Positions 34,140 to 48,860 are shown, counted from the first letter of the stretch. The stretch is 64,000 bases of DNA from Escherichia coli (GCF_030384885.1 NZ_CP128613.1), one strand, 5' to 3'. A program made the numbers and translations. The notes: a model not told the origin generated them from the sequence alone.

Positions 34140-34183
34140 TGGTGGGCTGGCGGGAGTTGAACCCGCGTCCGAAATTCCTACAT
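34140..34183. repeat. attL: direct repeat of ssrA 3' end (1-nt deletion relative to attR copy)
   Basis: TGGTGG-GCTGGCGGGAGTTGAACCCGCGTCCGAAATTCCTACAT matches 48498-48542 except for one missing A. Confidence 0.85.
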
Positions 34184-34346: not shown

Positions 34347-35114
34347 TTATTGTTTTATTATCTTAACGTGCGCCGTTCCTCCATTGACTTTTTCGAAATC
34401 TTGGAACAAGGCAGGGGCATCTTGAGTTACAATATCGTAAAGTTTTTCTGAAACTGTTCTCATTTCATAGTCACCCTGTATTGCTCCTCTCATTTCGAAG
34501 AAGTGTCGAATTGCGCGAGCATTTGCTGTGACGATTATTTTTGTCTCGGTTGCATTAGGCAATATAGAGCGAGAAGCGCTTCTTAAGGCCCGCATTTTTT
34601 CTTTTTTGTTCTCATACGATTGGTTTTCACGGATTTTTTTCAAGGATTGCTTATAAAAATCCAGACTACTTTCAATATGTTGGCACCATGACTTAAACAA
34701 TTCTGGGTCATTTTTTACTTCTATAGGGGCTACGAATTCAGCATCGGATTCATCATGATACTGTTGGGATAACTGGCTATATGAAAAACCAGCTCTATGC
34801 CGAACTAGCTGGTGTGTAAATGCACGAGATACCCCAGTAATTAAAAAGGTCCAGTTCAAATGTTCTAAGACACTTTCATGCCCTTGAATAATTAAATTGT
34901 TGATATATTGACTTGTAGTCCGTGGAGACTGCTTATCCTCTCCAAAAGACATATAACATAGCCTGCCAGCGGCCTCTACCAGAAGCTCAGCTTCGGTCGC
35001 CTGCCCTTTGCGAACCCATTGCAATGATGATGTGTTTAAAAAATCATCAAAAACATTACTTTCAAATGAAGGGTGTGATATGCATTTTACTGATAAATCA
35101 GAGATTTTTATCAT
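34347..35114 (-). CDS. ThyX-family (flavin-dependent thymidylate synthase, Thy1 domain) homolog
   Basis: 255 aa; signature RHR-x8-S (LVRHRAGFSYSQLSQQY), upstream GHESVLEH and downstream TANARAIRHFF blocks align with canonical ThyX (GHETPFEH ... WFRHRIASYNELSGRY ... TVNARSLMNF). Low GC. Confidence 0.75.
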   Translation of the reverse strand: MIKISDLSVKCISHPSFESNVFDDFLNTSSLQWVRKGQATEAELLVEAAGRLCYMSFGEDKQSPRTTSQYINNLIIQGHESVLEHLNWTFLITGVSRAFTHQLVRHRAGFSYSQLSQQYHDESDAEFVAPIEVKNDPELFKSWCQHIESSLDFYKQSLKKIRENQSYENKKEKMRALRSASRSILPNATETKIIVTANARAIRHFFEMRGAIQGDYEMRTVSEKLYDIVTQDAPALFQDFEKVNGGTAHVKIIKQ

Positions 35115-35116
35115 TT

Positions 35117-35902
35117 TTACTCCCGTATAGCTTTTGGGGTGCTTACTTTAGCATCAACCTTTGGTTCGTTTGATTTAGCATTTTTTAGTAATTCAACGGT
35201 GCTTTTTAGGCTATTTATTTCATTTTGTTGAACTTTTATTGTTAATTCAAGATCTTTTGTACTACTGACATTACTGGATACTATTTGAAATAAGAAAGGA
35301 ATTGCTAGGGTTATCAACGTTAGCATTAAGGCTGCTATCGCAATTATAAAGCCAGTTTTTTTCGCAATGATTTTATTGATTTCTTTCGGAAGTCGTTTAT
35401 CAAGTCCTGCAAAATCCTTTCCCATTCTAGAAAGTTGATCATCATCCAATTTATTTACGATTTTTCCTTGGTAACCTTTAGTCGGTATTATTGTTTTAAA
35501 TAATAACATTCGGGCTACTGCTGAATTTTGTGTCAATGAGAATGGTTCTTTTGACATATTTACAAGATATATTGAAATTATGCCATTATATCCAGGGTCA
35601 ATATGCCCTGGATTCGTCATGATAATTCCATTTTTTGATAGTGTGTTTCTTGGAAATATTACACCAGCTAAATTTTTTGCAAGTTGGAATTTTTCATTTA
35701 ACTCTAATATTACAGTTTCCCCTGGCATCAGGATATGGTTGTTACGTGTTTTTTTATTGTCTTGACAGTCTGGTATATGTATTGTTTTTACAGAGAGATC
35801 AATGCTTGCAGATTGAACTTTAAATGTTCCATTTAATACCGTTAATGGATCAAAAATGTTGCCTCGCTGAATTTCATCATTGATTTCTATTTCAGACAGC
35901 AT
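35117..35902 (-). CDS. dCTP deaminase/dUTPase-superfamily protein with C-terminal transmembrane helix and coiled-coil tail
   Basis: 261 aa; residues 1-150 align with E. coli Dcd (ASIDLSVKT / LMPGETVILEL / GHIDPGYNGIISIYLVNMSKEPFSLTQNSAVARMLL vs ATVDVRLGN / LHPGELALAV / [34 protein letters not shown]); C-terminal hydrophobic segment GFIIAIAALMLTLITLAIPFLF then K/E-rich tail. 2-bp gap to the thyX-like gene. Confidence 0.75.
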   Translation of the reverse strand: MLSEIEINDEIQRGNIFDPLTVLNGTFKVQSASIDLSVKTIHIPDCQDNKKTRNNHILMPGETVILELNEKFQLAKNLAGVIFPRNTLSKNGIIMTNPGHIDPGYNGIISIYLVNMSKEPFSLTQNSAVARMLLFKTIIPTKGYQGKIVNKLDDDQLSRMGKDFAGLDKRLPKEINKIIAKKTGFIIAIAALMLTLITLAIPFLFQIVSSNVSSTKDLELTIKVQQNEINSLKSTVELLKNAKSNEPKVDAKVSTPKAIRE

Positions 35903-40072: not shown

Positions 40073-40926
40073 GCACCATCCTGAAATGGGCGGGAAATAA
40101 AACTGCCATAATGTCCGAACTGAAAAAACATCTTCCTGCTGGCCCGCGACTGGTTGAACCTTTCGCGGGTTCCTGTGCTGTGATGATGGAGACGGATTAT
40201 CCCAGCTATCTGGTTGCGGATATTAATCCTGATTTAATCAACCTCTATAAAAAGGTTGCCGCTGATTGTGAATCGTTTATATCTCGCGCCAGAGTTTTAT
40301 TTGAGATCGCAAACAGGGAGGTGGCTTATTACAACATAAGGCAGGAGTTTAATTACTCAACTGAAATTACTGATTTCATGAAAGCGGTATATTTCCTGTA
40401 TCTCAATCGTCACGGTTACCGTGGTTTATGTCGCTATAACAAGAGCGGGCATTTCAACATTCCCTACGGTAATTATAAAAATCCGTATTTCCCTGAAAAA
40501 GAAATTCGCGCATTTGCAGAAAAGGCCCAGCGAGCAACGTTTATCTGCGCCAGCTTTGATGAAACGCTGGCGATGTTGAAGGCGGGGGATGTGGTGTATT
40601 GCGATCCGCCGTATGACGGTACGTTTTCCGGCTATCACACTGACGGCTTCACTGAAGATGACCAGTATCACCTGGCATCTGTTCTTGAACATCGGTCATC
40701 AGAAGGACATCCGGTCATTGTTTCTAACAGTGACACATCCCTGATCCGTTCGCTGTATCGCAATTTTACTCACCACTACATCAAGGCAAAACGCAGCATC
40801 GGTGTGGCAGCTGGCGAGGGTAAATCAGCAACAGAAATCATTGCTGTTTCCGGGCCGCGCTGCTGGGTGGGATTTGATTATTCGCGTGGCGTGGATAGTT
40901 CTGCCGTGTACGGAGTACGTGCATGA
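40069..40926 (+). CDS. DNA adenine methyltransferase (Dam-like, D12 class N6-adenine MTase)
   Basis: Protein [25 protein letters not shown]...EPFAGSCAV... and DPPY catalytic motif (VYCDPPYDG). Confidence 0.85.
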
Positions 40927-43337
40927 GTCATGCCGATATGAACAACTGCTGCGGCTTTAACGAAGCTGCCGCATCGTTCTCATGGAACAGCCCGAAAAAG
41001 GCCATTAACCCTTATCTGGACCCGGCGGAAGTTGCGCCGGTTTCTGCGCTTTCAAACCTGATCACTCTGTACGCTACTGATAACGAGCAGGAACAACTGC
41101 GCCGCGAGGCACTGAGTGATCAGGTCTGGGAGCGTTATTTCTTTAATGAATCCCGTGATCCTGTCCAACGCGAAATGGAGCAGGATAAGCTCATTAGCCG
41201 GGCAAAGATGGCGCATGAGCAGCAGCGTTTTAATCCAGACATGGTCATTCTGACTGACGTCAACGCCCAGCCTTCCCATATCAGCAAGCCGCTGATGCAA
41301 CGTATTGAATATTTCAGCAGCCTGGGCAGGCCAAAGGCTTATTCCCGCTATTTGCGTGAGACGATTAAGCCATGTCTGGAACGACTGGAGCATGTACGCG
41401 ACAGCCAGCTATCTGCATCTTTTCGTTTTATGGCAAGCCATGAAGGGCTGGACGGTCTGCTGATCCTGCCTGAAATGAGTCAGGATCAGGTGAAACGCCT
41501 GTCTACCCTTGTCGCTGCGCATATGAGCATGTGTCTTGATGCCGCTTGTGGTGATTTGTACGCCTCCGATGATGTTAAGCCAGAAGAAATCCGCAAGACA
41601 TGGGAAAAGGTGGCTGCAGAAACCCTGCGACTGGATGTCATACCGCCTGCGTTTGAGCAACTCCGCCGGAAAAGAAACCGCCGCAAACCTGTGCCTTATG
41701 AACTCATTCCGGGTTCGCTGGCGCGTATGCTGTGCGCCGACTGGTGGTATCGGAAATTATGGAAGATACGTTGCGAATGGCGGGAAGAGCAGTTGCGTGC
41801 TGTCTGCCTGGTCAGCAAAAAAGCATCTCCCTATGTCAGCTATGAAGCCGTGATGCATAAACGTGAGCAGCGCCGTAAGTCGCTGGAGTTTTTCCGTTCT
41901 CATGAACTGGTGAACGAAGACGGCGACACGCTGAACATGGAGGATGTGGTAAACACCAGCAGCAGCAACCCGGCGCATCGCCGCAACGAGATGATGGCCT
42001 GTGTTAAAGGCCTAGAGCTTATCGCGGAAATGCGTGGTGACTGCGCCGTTTTCTACACCATCACCTGTCCGTCACGTTTCCATTCCACGCTAAATAACGG
42101 CAGGCCAAACCCGACCTGGACCAACGCGACAGTAAGACAAAGCAGCGATTATCTGGTCGGCATGTTTGCTGCATTTCGTAAGGCTATGCACAAAGCCGGG
42201 TTGCGCTGGTATGGCGTGCGGGTGGCTGAGCCGCATCATGACGGCACAGTTCACTGGCACCTGTTGTGTTTCATGCGCAAAAAAGACCGCCGCGCCATTA
42301 CTGCATTGTTGCGTAAGTTTGCCATCCGTGAAGACCGCGAGGAGCTGGGCAATAACACGGGGCCACGCTTTAAGTCTGAGCTGATAAACCCGCGCAAAGG
42401 AACGCCGACAAGCTACATTGCGAAATATATCAGTAAGAATATTGACGGGCGTGGTCTGGCTGGCGAGATCAGTAAGGAAACGGGTAAATCCCTGCGTGAT
42501 AACGCTGAATACGTTAATGCCTGGGCGTCTCTGCATCGTGTTCAGCAATTCCGCTTCTTTGGCATTCCGGGGCGTCAGGCTTACCGTGAACTGCGATTGC
42601 TGGCTGGTCAGGCGGCAAGGCAACAGGGTGACAAAAAAGCAGGTGCGCCGGTACTGGATAACCCGCGCCTTGATGCCATCCTGGCTGCTGCTGATGCTGG
42701 TTGTTTTGCCTCCTACATCATGAAGCAGGGCGGCGTACTGGTTCCCCGCAAATATCACCTCATCAGAACCGCTTATGAAATCAACGAAGAGCCGACCGCC
42801 TATGGCGATCACGGTATTCGTATTTATGGCATCTGGTCACCCATTGCAGAGGGCAAGATCTGCACTCATGCAGTGAAGTGGAAAATGGTTCGTAAGGCCG
42901 TTGACGTTCAGGAGGCGGCAGCCGACCAGGGCGCTTGCGCCCCTTGGACTCGTGGCAATAACTGTCCCCTTGCTGAAAATTTGAACCAACAGGAGAAAGA
43001 TAAATCAGCTGATGGGGACACCAGAACGGACATTACCCGCATGGATGACAAGGAGTTGCACGATTACCTGCACAGTATGAGCAAAAAAGAGCGCCGGGAA
43101 CTGGCTGCAAGGTTACGCCAGGTGAAACCGAAACGGCGTAAAGACTACAAACAGCGAATTACAGACCATCAGCGACAGCAGCTCGTCTATGAACTGAAGT
43201 CCAGGGGATTTGATGGCAGTGAGAAAGAAGTCGATTTGCTCCTTCGCGGTGGCAGTATTCCGTCAGGAGCAGGCCTGCGTATTTTCTATCGGAACCAGCG
43301 TCTGAAGGAAGATGATAAGTGGCGGAACCTGTATTAA
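40923..43337 (+). CDS. Phage replication initiation protein (186/P2 gene A-type endonuclease)
   Basis: 804-aa protein following Dam in early operon; size and position match P2/186 protein A. Confidence 0.7.
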
Positions 43338-43489
43338 TTACGCGGGTTAACAATTCGTGCCCTTAATAATACCAGGCATATCAGGCTGATGAATGTAAAA
43401 AAACGTTTTACATCAGTAAGATTATTATATACTGTAAATATAAACAGTGGTTATCTATACAGTATTGCTTTGGTGTCATAGGAGGAAAG

Positions 43490-43678
43490 ATGCAGGACTA
43501 TTTTTTGGAGTCTTTGAAGCTCCAGCGCATTGATTTTTTTCTTAAGCTTGTAGCGGCTAGTGAGTGTAGTGATGAAGAGAAGGGGCTGGCTCTGCAGTGG
43601 GTTTCTGAACTGACAGATGAACTCATGGCAAAAATCAGAACCCACGAATACAACCGCTCAATGGATGTCATCAGCTGA
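43490..43678 (+). CDS. Hypothetical protein (62 aa)
   Basis: Small ORF with GGAGGAAAG RBS upstream of ATG. Confidence 0.45.
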   Translation: MQDYFLESLKLQRIDFFLKLVAASECSDEEKGLALQWVSELTDELMAKIRTHEYNRSMDVIS

Positions 43679-43688
43679 GGTGACTTTT

Positions 43689-43922
43689 ATGCGCATTGAA
43701 ATAATGATCGATAAAGAGCAGAAGATTAGCCAGTCTACCCTGGACGCCCTTGAATCCGAGCTTTACCGCAATCTGCGCCCCCTGTATCCCAAAACGGTAA
43801 TCCGTATCCGTAAAGGTAGCTCTAACGGTGTGGAACTGACCGGACTGCAACTGGACGAAGAAAGAAAACAAGTGATGAAAATTATGCAGAAGGTGTGGGA
43901 AGACGACAGCTGGCTGCATTGA
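43689..43922 (+). CDS. DinI-family protein
   Basis: 77 aa MRIEIMIDKEQKISQSTLDALESELYRNLRPLYP...VWEDDSWLH, resembling DinI (MRIEVTIAK...DALAGELSRR...W...). Confidence 0.7.
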   Translation: MRIEIMIDKEQKISQSTLDALESELYRNLRPLYPKTVIRIRKGSSNGVELTGLQLDEERKQVMKIMQKVWEDDSWLH

Positions 43923-44035
43923 TTTTGTCAATAGACGCTTGTTTTTACTAATCAAAAAGGGTTACATATGAGTGAGAGGCGATGTCAATCAGATATCGCC
44001 TTGTTTTTTGTCAAGAAAAGAATAATAGGCTAAAA

Positions 44036-44713
44036 ATGAAAATTAATAATGTAGCGTTACCAATATCTCTTGCTGTAATCCTAACTGGTTGCGTGCCACA
44101 TGCTTCTAACCGAAATATCACTGCTATTGAAGTGGTGAAGCCTGCTATTGGGCAAAGTGCTACCGCCTACATGGGCGATCCCATTATCACATCTGCTACT
44201 GGATTTAAAACGGACGTACTAGAACTTGGTGCGGCTAATGGTGCATTGTCTTCTATCGCTGCTGGTACATATTGCAGTGAGGGGAATGGAATTTACCGCA
44301 ATTATCATAACCCTCAAGCTGTTGCGTTAAAAAATCTCTATGGGCAAATCGGTAACTATGTTGATTATGTTAGTTACGATGCTGCAAAAAATGAGATATC
44401 ACCGCCAAATGGTACTTCTTATACTGCATCAGAAATTTCTATCAAACGTGTTCCTGATGGGCTGTGTCGAGTTAGTAACTCATTGGTTAAGACTATCGAA
44501 TACAATGGAAATGCAGGCGGTGTAATGAAGTTCACCTATCGTGAATTTGCAAACGATATGGCTCGTGCAGCATTTACAACAGATTTTTCTGTAGATTCTA
44601 AGGGAAGTGACGTTATCGCTTACAAAGGTGCCAAGTTCAAAGTGAACAAGGCTGATAACTCGTCTATTTCTTATACAATTATTTCTGGCTTTGACAAGGC
44701 TGTCACGTTCTAG
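44036..44713 (+). CDS. Predicted lipoprotein (225 aa), function unknown
   Basis: Signal peptide with lipobox (MKINNVALPISLAVILTGC); low-GC; located in cargo region after replication gene. Confidence 0.6.
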   Translation: MKINNVALPISLAVILTGCVPHASNRNITAIEVVKPAIGQSATAYMGDPIITSATGFKTDVLELGAANGALSSIAAGTYCSEGNGIYRNYHNPQAVALKNLYGQIGNYVDYVSYDAAKNEISPPNGTSYTASEISIKRVPDGLCRVSNSLVKTIEYNGNAGGVMKFTYREFANDMARAAFTTDFSVDSKGSDVIAYKGAKFKVNKADNSSISYTIISGFDKAVTF

Positions 44714-45038
44714 GTTTCACGCTTACTGAGTATGTTACGATTTTGCACATTCTGCATAAACGCGCATGTCTATGCTGCATGAGATCGCATGATCGTTTGA
44801 GGATCTTTTGTGTTAAGGCCCGCCAGTTCTGGCGGGCTTTTGCGTAGATCATGCAGGTGCATGAAAACCACTACATAAAGCGGGCAGGCGTGGCGGGGAT
44901 ACGAGCGCGCGTTATGACAAATAGATGATTAGCCTGATTTATTCACAGCTGTATAAATGATCACCTTGTAATTAGGTAAGTAATGTCTTCTATTATCATT
45001 GATTTGATAGGATTAATCTGTTTTTTGAGGATTAGAGG

Positions 45039-47375
45039 ATGATTGAAGAGGTAGTTATTGACAAAGTAGGCTCATATAATGGCCCTACTCAGCTTTTACA
45101 TGGGCTTTCTAAATTTAACTATTTATATGGAGCTAATGGTGCAGGTAAAACAACTATAAGTAAAATTATTAATGACCCTGAACAATATCCAACATGTCCG
45201 ATTAAATGGAAAAATAATATATCTTTAATAAGCTACGTATATAATAAAGATTTTGTTGAAAGAAATTTTAGTCAAGATAAAATTAAAGGTGTATTTACCC
45301 TTGGTAGCGATCTTAAGGAGGATGAAGAGAAATTAATATCTCTTGAAGAAGAAAAAAATAAGCTAATAGAATCTATTATAGCAAAGGAAAAGCTAATAGA
45401 TGGTGGTGATAATATATTAGGCGTTGTTAAACAAATCGAAGACCATGAAAAATCTTTTAAAGATTCATGTTGGAAGCAAAAAGTAAAACATGATAATGTG
45501 TTCTCAAAGGCTTTTGAGGGATTAAGGAATAGTAGTGAAAAATTTAAAGCTAGAGTGTTGGCTGAGTATGAAAATAACACATCAGAAGTTTGCTCAATAG
45601 CAGAGCTAATTGAGAAAGCAAAAATTGTTTTTTCTACTGAATTGACATCACATGTATCAATTACAATTCCATCCTTCAATGGGATAGATGATATTTTGAG
45701 TAGGGAGATTTGGAGTGAGCGTATTCTAGGGAAAAAAGACGTTAGTGTTTCAGACTTAATTACAATGCTCAATAACAGTGATTGGGTTAAGGAAGGTTTA
45801 ACATATTTCAGTAAATCTAATCCCAAGTGCCCATTCTGCCAGCAGGATGTAAATGATAATATATTTGATAATCTATCATCATATTTTGATAAAACATATG
45901 AGTTAAAAAAAAGAGAAATCGATGCATTGGTTTTACAATATGAACATCAACTTAATAATATCTTGCAGGCGATAGATGATATAAGGGCGATTAAATCTCC
46001 ATTCATAAATTATGAAGTGTTTGAGGATAAGGCTAAGATAGTATTATCTGAATTAAACAAGAATTTTGAATTGGCAAAAAATAAACGCAATTTTTTAAGT
46101 GAATCAGTTCATTTTAGTGACTTAAGTGAAGTTGTTGATGATTTTATTTCTTTTTTGAATGATTCAAATCTATTGATAGATAATAATAACAAAATACACA
46201 GTAATAGAAAGGTAGAGGCTAGTAATCTTTCTAATCAGATATGGGCATATATCGTAAAGGTGGAGTTAAAGTCTGAAATAACTTCTTACCGTAGCGAATC
46301 TGATAAATTTAATAGGAAGTTACAAGGGCTTAAATCTGGGTTAGAGGAAGACAAAAAGAAGTTAATGTTAAATGCTTCGGCTATTGAGGCAATTGAGTCT
46401 AATAAAACCAGTACTCTTCCAACTATTACAAAAATTAACAAGATTCTGGATTCTTATGGCTTCAAAAATTTTTACTTAAAACCCTCCGAAGATAAAAAGC
46501 ATTATATGATAGTGAGAGATAGTGGAGATAATGCTCGTACAACCCTTAGCGAGGGAGAAAAGACATTTATCACTTTTTTGTATTTTTATAGCCTTGTTAG
46601 AGGGAGTGATAATGCATCAGGTGTTTTAGATGATCGTGTTGTAGTATTTGATGATCCAATTTCAAGTTTAGATAGTGATATTCTGTTTATTGTAAGTTCG
46701 TTGATTAAAGATTTAATGGAGGATGTTCGTAAGGATGAAGGAAATATTAAGCAAATTATATTCCTTACACATAATATTTATTTTCATAAAGAGTTGACTT
46801 TTAATACTAAAAGATCCGGTAATCAAGCAATGAAAGAGGAGACTTTTTGGATTGTAAGGAAAAAAGGGAAGGTCTCATATCTTGAAAAGTGCGAATCAAA
46901 CCCAATAAAAACGTCTTATGATTTGCTCTGGTGCGAATTGAGAAGAACAGATATTAATAATAATACTATACAAAATACAATGCGAAGGATTTTGGAGAAT
47001 TACTTTAAGATATTAGGTGGGATGGATATTAGGAAGCTTGAATGTCATTTTTATGGTGATGAAAAAATCATATTTAAATCTTTAGTGTCATGGATTAATG
47101 ATGGTTCTCATTTTGCAGGTGATGATCTTTATATGAATTTAGATACGGAGTCTGTGCAAAAATATTTAATTGTTTTTCAGAAGATATTTGAGTGTAGTGA
47201 GCATACTGCCCATTACAAAATGATGATGGGTGAGTTTTATAGACCGTTAAATGAGTCACTTCATCTACAAGATGAGTTTGATATTGATGATAGTGCGAAT
47301 GATGAGTATGCTTCGTCAAAAATTGAGATAGAAGATGGAATAAACACATCTCTACATAGTAATACATATTTGTAA
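45039..47375 (+). CDS. PrrC/RloC-like ABC-type ATPase (AAA_13-like) with CxxC motif and C-terminal putative HEPN-like domain
   Basis: 778 aa; Walker A GANGAGKTT, Walker B VVVFDDPISSLD, H-loop-like FLTHN, long K/E-rich coiled-coil insert containing CPFC; C-terminal domain with RKLECH (R-x4-H) and RRILE (R-x3-E) motifs; very low GC. Confidence 0.65.
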   Translation: MIEEVVIDKVGSYNGPTQLLHGLSKFNYLYGANGAGKTTISKIINDPEQYPTCPIKWKNNISLISYVYNKDFVERNFSQDKIKGVFTLGSDLKEDEEKLISLEEEKNKLIESIIAKEKLIDGGDNILGVVKQIEDHEKSFKDSCWKQKVKHDNVFSKAFEGLRNSSEKFKARVLAEYENNTSEVCSIAELIEKAKIVFSTELTSHVSITIPSFNGIDDILSREIWSERILGKKDVSVSDLITMLNNSDWVKEGLTYFSKSNPKCPFCQQDVNDNIFDNLSSYFDKTYELKKREIDALVLQYEHQLNNILQAIDDIRAIKSPFINYEVFEDKAKIVLSELNKNFELAKNKRNFLSESVHFSDLSEVVDDFISFLNDSNLLIDNNNKIHSNRKVEASNLSNQIWAYIVKVELKSEITSYRSESDKFNRKLQGLKSGLEEDKKKLMLNASAIEAIESNKTSTLPTITKINKILDSYGFKNFYLKPSEDKKHYMIVRDSGDNARTTLSEGEKTFITFLYFYSLVRGSDNASGVLDDRVVVFDDPISSLDSDILFIVSSLIKDLMEDVRKDEGNIKQIIFLTHNIYFHKELTFNTKRSGNQAMKEETFWIVRKKGKVSYLEKCESNPIKTSYDLLWCELRRTDINNNTIQNTMRRILENYFKILGGMDIRKLECHFYGDEKIIFKSLVSWINDGSHFAGDDLYMNLDTESVQKYLIVFQKIFECSEHTAHYKMMMGEFYRPLNESLHLQDEFDIDDSANDEYASSKIEIEDGINTSLHSNTYL

Positions 47376-47424
47376 TTTTATTGCAATTGCCAGTAGCAAC
47401 AATACGGTACTGGCAACTAATATT

Positions 47425-47965
47425 TTAGTTAAGCTCATATGGAGAAAATTCTATAAGTTTCTCCCCGAGCCATGCGTTTATTTCCATAAATCGTTTTTGC
47501 AAAGGAATTAATTCATTTATCACAAAAACCTTACTAGCCTTCTCCACATCCCCAAACCCCCCAACATTATTAGGCATTATCCCCATCATTTGCGGCGGCA
47601 CACGGTGTGCCGCCATCATGTCGTCCCGGCTCACGTTCTTGATATTCAGAAACTCATCCTTCGCCGCGACTTCTGACAACGGGATAATCTGAAGCCCGTC
47701 CTTTTTGCCGTTAGGAGAGTACATAAACAGGTTGCGGAAGTTGCCTGGCCCTTTGGCACTTTTCATTGCGTTGCGGAGGTTGTTCACATCTTCTTGGTTC
47801 TGTGCGGCATCGGTCATGTACATGATGAAACCTGCATGGCTGCCGTTGATGTAATACTTACGGCGGAACAGTGTGGCGGACTCGTTGAGCAGGGCTGACG
47901 GGATGGCAGAGAGATAACCTGGCAGGCCGTAGATCTCCTGGTTGATGTCCGGTTCCGCCCTTAAT
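47425..47965 (-). pseudogene. Phage portal protein (P2 gpQ-like), 3' fragment only
   Basis: C-terminal portal-like sequence (...FRNLFMYSPNGKKDGLQIIPLSEVAAKDEFL...); reading frame extends upstream without start until sequence character changes near 47965. Confidence 0.6.
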
Positions 47966-48153
47966 CATCTCAACCATGCGTTACAGCTCGATCCCCGCTG
48001 TGGCGTGAAAAAAGACAAACAGCAGCTGGAGCGCAGACTGCGCAATGACAGCCGCTGACAGAACGTGCCCCCGCGCACGGGCGGCACGGGGTGGCGAAAG
48101 GCACAGCCACATCAAAACCCCGTCCACCGCCCTTTATTTCAGGAGAAAGCAGC

Positions 48154-48354
48154 ATGAAGTTTGTTGCGCCAGAACAGGCACCGGAACAGGCGGAAATCAT
48201 CAGAAACACGCCGTTCTGGCCTGATGTGGACCTGTCGGAGTTTCGCAGTGTCATGCGCACTGACGGCACGGTGACGCAGCCGCGTTTAAAGCAGGTTGCG
48301 CTGTCGGCAATTTCGGAGGTCAACGCACCGATACGACCATTTGCATTGATGTAA
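48154..48354 (+). CDS. Hypothetical small protein in prophage remnant (66 aa)
   Basis: ORF MKFVAPEQAPEQAEIIRNTPFWPDVDLSEFRSV... preceded by AGGAG RBS; identity not recognised. Confidence 0.4.
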   Translation: MKFVAPEQAPEQAEIIRNTPFWPDVDLSEFRSVMRTDGTVTQPRLKQVALSAISEVNAPIRPFALM

Positions 48355-48497: not shown

Positions 48498-48542
48498 TGG
48501 TGGAGCTGGCGGGAGTTGAACCCGCGTCCGAAATTCCTACAT
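48498..48542. repeat. attR: ssrA 3'-terminal att core
   Basis: TGGTGGAGCTGGCGGGAGTTGAACCCGCGTCCGAAATTCCTACAT, repeated at 34140-34183. Confidence 0.85.
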
Positions 48543-48860
48543 CCTCGGTACTACATGCTTAGTCAGTCTTTACATTCGCTTGCCAGCTGCGGACGGACAC
48601 GCCACTAACAAACTAGCCTGATTAAGTTTTAACGCTTCAACCCCAGGCAGGGCTTCCACGCGATCTCTTTTGGGTTTGACCTCTCTTGATCCCCGTCCTA
48701 AGAGCGGAGGCTAGGGAGAGAGGGCTCTAAGCAGGTTATTAAGCTGCTAAAGCGTAGTTTTCGTCGTTTGCGACTATTTTTTGCGGCTTTTTACGAGGCC
48801 AACCGCCCCTCGGCATGCACCTTGGGTTTCGCAAATCCCGTCGAATCCAGAATCAGCCCC
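48498..48860 (-). ncRNA. ssrA: tmRNA (SsrA)
   Basis: Reverse complement matches E. coli tmRNA from 5' GGGGCTGATTCTGGATTCGACGGG to 3' ...GGGTTCAACTCCCGCCAGCTCCACCA, including the tag-coding region. Confidence 0.95.

Follow-up and report, generated by a model that had tools for sequence, protein, structure and literature searches.

A predicted outer-membrane lipoprotein at the distal end of a putative SOS operon beside cos in a P2-like prophage remnant of Escherichia coli

Is a lipoprotein gene in the cargo region of a prophage an independent acquisition or one half of a system with the ATPase gene that follows it, and what might it do for its host? The question is raised by a 64,000-nucleotide stretch of Escherichia coli DNA (GCF_030384885.1, NZ_CP128613.1; hereafter the window, with positions counted from its first letter). 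An earlier note, made from the sequence alone, had described an open reading frame (ORF) at 43982-44713 as a low-GC prophage lipoprotein that might mediate superinfection exclusion, either as an independent moron or as a partner of the ATPase. We find that the gene is very probably a genuine, independent lipoprotein cassette, and the layout of the locus places it as the distal gene of a tum operon predicted to be under LexA control, behind a hairpin resembling a partial terminator. The lipoprotein itself is unsurprising; what stands out is its apparent SOS wiring, the splitting of the cargo hotspot by cos, and the size and lack of annotation of its family.

The lipoprotein and its start codon

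44036-44713, plus strand: lipoprotein coding sequence, 225 amino acids plus stop (ORF call, homologue alignment, lipoprotein rule, phrog_1353).

The longest ORF, 43982-44713 on the plus strand, would encode 243 amino acids. It exists as described previously, but translation almost certainly begins at the internal ATG (44036) and not at the upstream one (43982), because homologue starts, database annotation, RNA folding and signal-peptide analysis all favour the former. All 21 aligned homologues begin at or beside the methionine of the shorter form, and the E. coli annotation of the NCBI Prokaryotic Genome Annotation Pipeline gives a coding sequence of 678 nt (WP_000700647.1). The upstream ATG falls within an 11-bp hairpin followed by a T-run (43976-44002). 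Finally, a PROSITE-type lipoprotein rule (basic n-region, hydrophobic h-region, lipobox [LVI][ASTVI][GAS]C and a cysteine at position 15-35) is satisfied solely by the 225-residue form, with its cysteine at position 19. A 243-residue product lacking a lipoprotein signal would be the alternative: the ATG at 43982 opens the longest ORF, follows closely on a GAGAGG motif and is the start used in the Fels-2 annotation. Yet it lies inside a terminator hairpin, only 2 nt from the putative Shine-Dalgarno sequence, and neither the homologues, which start at the MK... methionine, nor the NCBI call agrees with it. The internal start also yields the size of about 225 residues estimated in the earlier note.

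The N terminus of the 225-residue form reads MKINNVALPISLAVILTGC. Residues 1-18 form the predicted signal peptide, with a single lysine (K2) and an h-region, VALPISLAVILT, of mean Kyte-Doolittle hydropathy 2.4. The LTGC lipobox reported earlier occupies residues 16-19, the Cys19 codon being TGC at 44090-44092, and G18 and C19 are invariant across 22 homologues. The same rule is passed by 115 of 154 full-length family representatives, those that fail having mostly relaxed lipoboxes or ordinary signal peptides. The predicted mature lipoprotein comprises 207 residues (~22 kDa) without any further hydrophobic segment. It contains two cysteines, Cys80 and Cys144, both invariant among close relatives, and mature family members mostly have an even number of cysteines.

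Lipoproteins without aspartate at position +2 are sorted to the outer membrane (the Asp(+2) retention rule). Here the +2 residue is Val20, not Asp, and A, V, S and T dominate this position across the family; the rule thus predicts outer-membrane sorting.

The gene is also what it appears to be at the nucleotide level. Compared with copies that are 57-99% identical, its ratio of non-synonymous to synonymous substitution rates (dN/dS) is 0.04-0.15, indicating purifying selection and therefore a protein-coding gene rather than a chance ORF; a decaying passenger is hard to reconcile with values so far below 1. Its GC content is 40.7%, as against 52.8% for gpA, which bears out the low GC noted before; the spacer that follows has 54.7% and the ATPase gene 30.6%.

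The putative SOS operon, the cos-split hotspot and the neighbouring ATPase

The elements surrounding the lipoprotein gene are as follows.

43407-43449, plus strand: p95-like SOS promoter (-35 TTTACA at 43407-43412, 17-nt spacer, -10 TACTGT at 43430-43435).
43430-43449, plus strand: LexA box TACTGTAAATATAAACAGTG, with a CTGT-N8-ACAG core overlapped by the -10 element.
43490-43678, plus strand: 62-residue ORF opening the tum-like operon, counterpart of STM2728 / WP_001154431.
43689-43922, plus strand: DinI/Tum-like gene, 77 residues (Pfam DinI, 1.3e-22; phrog_189).
43921-44763, plus strand: lipoprotein cassette, 843 bp, 39.6% GC (BLAST breakpoints against E. coli MINF_1D).
43976-44012, plus strand: t95a-like hairpin (11 bp) with U-run, between the DinI-like stop codon and the lipoprotein start (-16.6 kcal/mol, z = -4.1).
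44764-44911, plus strand: backbone spacer, 148 bp, 54.7% GC, common to carriers and non-carriers.
44815-44845, plus strand: t95b-like intrinsic terminator, GGCCCGCCA-GTTC-TGGCGGGC followed by TTTTG (-23.6 kcal/mol, z = -5.3).
44887-44905, plus strand: cos cohesive end GGCGTGGCGGGGATACGAG, 19 nt (match to annotated 186 cosL).
45039-47375, plus strand: AAA_13 ATPase, 778 residues (PADLOC candidate PDC-S06, 1.5e-266), left-end cargo between cos and the portal gene.

This arrangement is that of the SOS operon of phage 186. In the 186 record (NC_001317; Brumby et al. 1996), p95 is described as 'SOS-dependent', with its -10 element inside the LexA site; it drives a DinI-like tum gene, t95a causes partial termination of the p95 transcript, and there follow orf97 (732 nt), whose expression from a plasmid blocks 186 infection, then t95b and cos. 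Every one of these elements is reproduced in the window, from the LexA-boxed promoter through tum/DinI, hairpin, distal gene and terminator to cos, and the order p95, tum, t95a, 732-nt slot ORF, t95b, cos and the position before cos are the same, with the lipoprotein in the place of orf97. The CTGT-N8-ACAG pattern has two matches in the window, 0.57 being expected, and the Fels-2 and E. coli annotations call the 77-residue gene DinI-like or TumB-like. By analogy with 186, t95a would have its counterpart in the hairpin at 43976-44012, and t95b in the terminator at 44815-44845. All pairs of the hairpin (100%) are kept in five cassette variants, two of them by compensatory change, a sample of five sequences that does not reach significance; the terminator is kept in all aligned loci, and none of 200 shuffled sequences folds as well. 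The two operons differ in that tum is a single gene in 186 and is split here into the 62-residue ORF and the 77-residue DinI-like ORF. They also differ in the distal product: 186 Orf97 is membrane-associated, with N-terminal hydrophobic, transmembrane-like segments and no lipobox, whereas the window protein has one. Despite the shared slot and the identical length of 732 nt, no homology was found between the two (BLASTP E = 4.5).

Searching 43923-44035 for a sigma-70 promoter gave none that is convincing, the sole site having a -10 element that overlaps the start codon. Transcription data are available for the orthologous operon. After 30 min of treatment with the mutagen MX, Fels-2-carrying Salmonella TA100 showed upregulation of all three genes of the STM2726-STM2727-STM2728 operon, with fold changes of 14.8 (lowest p-value) and 2.6 (highest p-value), all at p<0.05 and 100% in the same direction; umuDC, ruvAB, polB and dinF were also among the induced operons, and no other Fels-2 operon was listed (PMC2225428). 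A spread from 14.8 to 2.6 is what a partial internal terminator would produce, although the paper does not assign the values to genes. This microarray study was the sole match in a literature search for WP_000700647 and STM2726. Taken together with the analogy to 186, SOS-coupled expression of the lipoprotein is probable.

The boundaries of the cassette are evident from E. coli MINF_1D, which has the same ATPase and no lipoprotein: there, 83 bp stand in for the 843-bp cassette. The cassette has a GC content of 39.6%, as against 48-55% in its flanks. The suggestion of an independent moron therefore holds in part. The cassette is a presence/absence insertion of deviant base composition between backbone genes, but it has no evident promoter of its own and takes the distal place in the tum operon, and the terminator that follows it belongs to the conserved backbone. 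The 83-bp filler of lipoprotein-less prophages (at 3523-3605 of contig L003) contains GTTGAACAACGAGCCC..GCGAGGCGTTAGC, an element that also lies 3' of phage 186 orf97 (~2360-2420) and is not in the window's cassette.

Downstream of the cassette, the backbone spacer is found in ~925 complete E. coli genomes and ends close to cos. The first 13 nt of the cos sequence are identical to annotated 186 cosL, and 12 of 13 match P2. Across eight aligned carrier loci, similarity stops abruptly after ...GAGCGCGCG at 44911, 6 nt past the cohesive end, a break that fits recombination at the cos end as the engine of cargo exchange. Because cos lies between lipoprotein and ATPase, the gpA-portal hotspot is two cargo slots rather than one: in packaged DNA the lipoprotein gene closes the right end, and the ATPase gene, between cos and portal, opens the left end.

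This has direct consequences for the idea that the lipoprotein and the AAA_13 (RloC/PrrC-like) ATPase form a two-gene defence system. The genes are adjacent and on the same strand in the window, the lipoprotein being just upstream of the ATPase as had been noted, and the pairing recurs in one metagenomic contig, L064. Yet the 325-bp gap between them holds a strong terminator and cos, so that they lie at opposite ends of the genome in virion DNA, and their GC contents differ (40.7 versus 30.6%). Each gene also occurs alone. Among ~50 P2-like loci with the lipoprotein (5 annotated records and 47 IMG/VR contigs), the distance from lipoprotein to portal takes at least 25 distinct values from 461 to 3,575 bp, reflecting at least 25 other downstream cargoes; at the locus with only 461 bp the lipoprotein stands alone. 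These cargoes include a retron, a 565-residue protein (Fels-2), a TIR pair, a 463-residue protein and two hypotheticals, and Table S5 of Rousset et al. 2022 adds AIPR. L064 is the only one of these carriers in which the window's pairing recurs, and its ATPase is 100% identical while its lipoprotein is ~90% identical, which indicates reassortment. Conversely, there are E. coli genomes with the ATPase and no lipoprotein; 43400-47900 is covered to 81% at most by any one complete E. coli genome, and the best matches are without the lipoprotein segment. PADLOC models the ATPase as a single-gene candidate. Neither conserved co-occurrence nor co-transcription with the ATPase, the marks of a two-gene system, is found, and we therefore reject the partnership proposed in the earlier note. 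Residues 459-703 of the ATPase give a weak PrrC-like match (2.5e-11), and several P2-like prophages of E. coli have it as their only cargo.

The host is E. coli, its ssrA and smpB sharing 98.6-99.5% identity with genomes of that species. The element carrying both lipoprotein and ATPase, inserted at ssrA, is what is left of a 186/Fels-2-type P2-like prophage that kept its cargo, so the placement in prophage cargo was sound. Its further landmarks are as follows.

34146-34183: 38-bp att repeat, copy of the ssrA 3' end, repeated at 48505-48542.
40923-43337: gpA (Pfam).
47425-47823, minus strand: C-terminal fragment of portal gene Q, 132 codons (ORF call, Pfam).
48091-48354, plus strand: fragment of head-completion gene L, first ~87 codons, near ssrA.
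48498-48860, minus strand: tmRNA gene (ssrA).

The two att copies delimit a remnant of ~14.3 kb with the gene order thyX, dCTP-deaminase/dUTPase-like gene, integrase, CI repressor, early genes, Dam methylase, gpA, 62-residue ORF, DinI-like gene, lipoprotein, ATPase, and portal and L fragments. As only the portal C terminus and the L fragment are left, the prophage is truncated, with every other structural gene gone and yet the cargo intact. Between the left att repeat and the integrase, a minus-strand stretch of ~32% GC (34347-35902) encodes ThyX (Pfam Thy1, 2.6e-48) and the dCTP-deaminase/dUTPase-like protein, possibly a second cargo region devoted to nucleotide-pool defence or counter-defence. 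Directly outside the left att repeat lies the gene for a 1,551-residue AIDA/pertactin-type autotransporter adhesin (29324-33979), which suggests a second, older island at ssrA. Further out, a low-GC (32-40%) block at 23374-28456 holds tRNA-Met (26188-26263), a DUF5507/DUF5508 protein (27020-28456) and an alpha-amylase-like protein of 750 residues (23374-25626, minus strand).

Family, carriers and known exclusion proteins

The lipoprotein matches phrog_1353 over its full length (3.1e-105; residues 1-223 against profile positions 1-230), and Fels-2 STM2726, phrog_1353 and WP_000700647.1 are the same gene, 99-100% identical, with only the downstream cargo differing. By contrast, it has no match in Pfam, NCBIfam or PADLOC-DB v2 (0 families at E <= 0.1), no meaningful Pfam family was matched by 74 diverse relatives, profiles built from alignments of 22 and 74 members retrieved nothing from the PDB or Pfam, and a Foldseek comparison against viral models gave no match. 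The family is nevertheless large, with matches to 1,456 cluster representatives (50% identity) at E <= 1e-3. Its members mostly have lengths of 215-240 residues, a few forms of 340-380 residues having an inserted middle region. The C-terminal ~75 residues are best conserved (IEYNG..G..KFTYREF..MAR.AFT.DF..D....YKGA...V..A.N..I.Y.V..F); P36, G47, G158 and E170 are invariant and Y156, Y168, R169, R177, D187 and Y213 nearly so. Using AlphaFold2 with the 74-sequence alignment, we obtained a confident all-beta model (predicted local distance difference test 92.1, predicted template modelling score 0.80).

Identical copies of the protein (100%) occur in 24 Klebsiella P2-like phage records, and the proteins of Fels-2 (STM2726) and Salmonella RE2010-type phages share 99% identity with it. 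In E. coli the gene is present in 49 of 5,426 complete genomes, that is, ~5% of those with the conserved spacer. Relatives of ~55% identity are carried by prophages or islands with serine recombinases at their borders, and have OLD-family nucleases, an AbiC-like gene or multi-pass membrane proteins as neighbours; one is in a mobilisable element of Brenneria. Those of ~37% identity occur singly in phage-plasmids of the SSU5/pHCM2 type from E. coli, Shigella, Citrobacter and Klebsiella, and those of ~25% lie within the tail modules of siphophages from Acinetobacter and Moraxella. The family also extends to bacteria of the environment and of plants, and to the phages of these (Pantoea, Brenneria, Buttiauxella), and a few members are chromosomal without obvious mobile neighbours. 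Two of the ~37% homologues, on NZ_OP242218 (5956-6633) and NZ_CP081792 (5926-6603), are single, divergently oriented genes on ~95-128-kb IncFIB-typed plasmids labelled 'non-mobilizable'; tail-fibre, primase, helicase and ligase genes on these plasmids identify them as SSU5-like phage-plasmids. No conserved partner gene of the lipoprotein emerged across the contexts examined. In Citrobacter-type islands (L059, 5899-6597, and L066-L068), a ~57%-identical lipoprotein is always followed by a 232-residue protein, multi-pass and hydrophobic in L059, which may be a lineage-specific partner there and is not seen in P2-like phages.

The lipoprotein does not follow the tail fibre of its phage. Lipoproteins that are 99-100% identical accompany varied fibres: between the Klebsiella and E. 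coli phages the H proteins share 79% identity, and the C-terminal half of Fels-2 H is unrelated. It thus does not track the receptor specificity of the phage that carries it, and these sequence comparisons fit a conserved host target better than the phage's own receptor.

How does it compare with known envelope proteins of mobile elements? Cor (phi80, N15, HK022, T1) and Llp (T5) are, as this protein is predicted to be, phage-encoded outer-membrane lipoproteins. They are ~60-80 residues long, are encoded near tail or receptor-binding genes and target FhuA, and Llp is made during infection, not constitutively, a timing comparable to the SOS-coupled expression proposed here. However, the window protein, at 207 mature residues, is larger, as the earlier note had remarked, matches neither in sequence family nor in structure, and does not co-vary with the tail fibre. 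TraT of F-like plasmids, which mediates surface exclusion, and lambda Bor/Iss are likewise outer-membrane lipoproteins of mobile elements, TraT being of similar size; TraT and Bor are tied to conjugation or serum resistance. Yet neither the window protein nor its 74 relatives match the TraT or Bor families of Pfam. The homology and structure searches that had been suggested as a check thus lead to phrog_1353 from end to end, and Cor, Llp, TraT and Bor are unrelated to the protein in both sequence and fold, even if its mode of action may resemble that of Cor, Llp or TraT.

The corresponding right end of P2, after gene A and next to cos, holds tin and old, two genes that exclude other phages (Rousset et al. 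2022). Their products differ in being cytoplasmic and without sequence relationship to the lipoprotein, and the genes are read leftward from a promoter of their own. The P2-hotspot tables of the same study list the lipoprotein gene just as 'hypothetical'. One E. coli carrier combines lipoprotein, hypothetical protein and TIR gene, which prompted a comparison with the AC1 '2TM+1TM+TIR' system of Rousset et al.; the '1TM' gene was rejected as a counterpart, since the cloned fragment starts with a different gene and the N-terminal peptide of the lipoprotein is not in Table S2. We also found no link to the 'lipoprotein' defence protein of Vassallo et al. 2022, for which no PADLOC model was matched and the available part of the supplements gives neither accession nor peptide.

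Proposed function and its meaning

We propose that the lipoprotein excludes phages, and possibly colicins, at the level of the envelope by acting on a conserved host envelope component, in a manner switched on by the SOS response. This analogy-based reading is plausible, though its chances are somewhat below even. The precursor would be exported by Sec, matured at Cys19 by Lgt, LspA and Lnt, and transferred by Lol to the outer membrane (Val, not Asp, at +2), a Cys80-Cys144 disulfide forming in the periplasm. Transcription would occur mainly by read-through of the partial terminator upon LexA inactivation, at a time when damaged DNA heralds the induction of prophages in this cell and in those around it. 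The lipoprotein may then block adsorption or DNA entry, and could also stop progeny from adhering to debris, like T5 Llp. Genome position speaks for exclusion, since in this slot 186 has an infection-blocking gene (orf97) and P2 has exclusion genes (tin, old), and so does the predicted envelope location; the receptor blocking raised in the earlier note would draw on these two points. Exclusion is also favoured because the wider P2 hotspot is dominated by anti-phage cargo (Rousset et al. 2022; Vassallo et al. 2022). Other reasons are the capture of the family by several unrelated temperate-phage lineages, and the combination of purifying selection and cross-genus identity, which fits a conserved host partner.

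A bolder version, which we consider somewhat unlikely, is that the protein is the founding member of a structurally new and widespread family of temperate-phage outer-membrane lipoproteins (>1,400 clusters at 50% identity) that serves as an SOS-triggered envelope shield, put up when DNA damage gives warning of a surge of induced prophages and colicins. If true, it would constitute a damage-gated defence at the level of adsorption or entry, closing a conserved entry route across Enterobacteriaceae and beyond, and distinct from Cor, Llp and TraT.

Prophage lipoproteins with established roles in serum resistance or host fitness offer another model, in which the gene would be a lysogenic-conversion factor that raises resistance to serum or complement, adhesion or tolerance of envelope stress, as Bor/Iss or TraT do. 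Its size near that of TraT, the same predicted compartment and its presence in prophages of clinical Klebsiella, Salmonella and E. coli agree with such a role. We regard it as unlikely, given the absence of Pfam similarity to TraT or Bor, the occurrence of the family in environmental and plant-associated bacteria, and an expression that, coupled to SOS and not constitutive in lysogeny, would suit serum resistance poorly.

The protein might instead act in the induction phase, as a helper of lysis or release, or provide envelope immunity against type VI secretion effectors, colicins, tailocins or muralytic enzymes. The gene does lie in an SOS operon, of which the Fels-2 version with the orthologue is mutagen-induced; the product is predicted to face the periplasm and modelled as all-beta and disulfide-bonded, as are many periplasmic inhibitor and immunity proteins; and the conserved charged C-terminal residues E170, R169, R177 and D187 suggest a putative binding site. 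But P2-like phages already have the LysA/B/C spanins, presence in only ~5% of spacer-bearing E. coli genomes means that the gene is not part of a core lysis programme, no known inhibitor or immunity family was matched, and no conserved effector gene adjoins the lipoprotein, all of which makes this role quite improbable. On the evidence given in the sections above, a two-gene system with the ATPase, and a 243-residue non-lipoprotein or decaying ORF, are both extremely improbable.

Whether or not SOS-switched envelope exclusion proves to be its function, the lipoprotein changes how its locus is to be read. The gpA-to-portal hotspot of P2-like phages is among the richest known reservoirs of anti-phage systems, and surveys, focusing on cytoplasmic systems, left this gene as an anonymous 'hypothetical'. 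The hotspot is to be read as two slots split by cos, of which the right-hand one appears to be wired to the LexA-controlled tum operon, and neighbouring hotspot genes should not be taken for a 'system' until cos and terminators have been checked. A recurrent occupant of the right-hand slot is a predicted outer-membrane lipoprotein of a large family without a match in Pfam, PADLOC or solved structures. Its position suggests that some prophage-borne protection may be gated by DNA damage rather than expressed constitutively.

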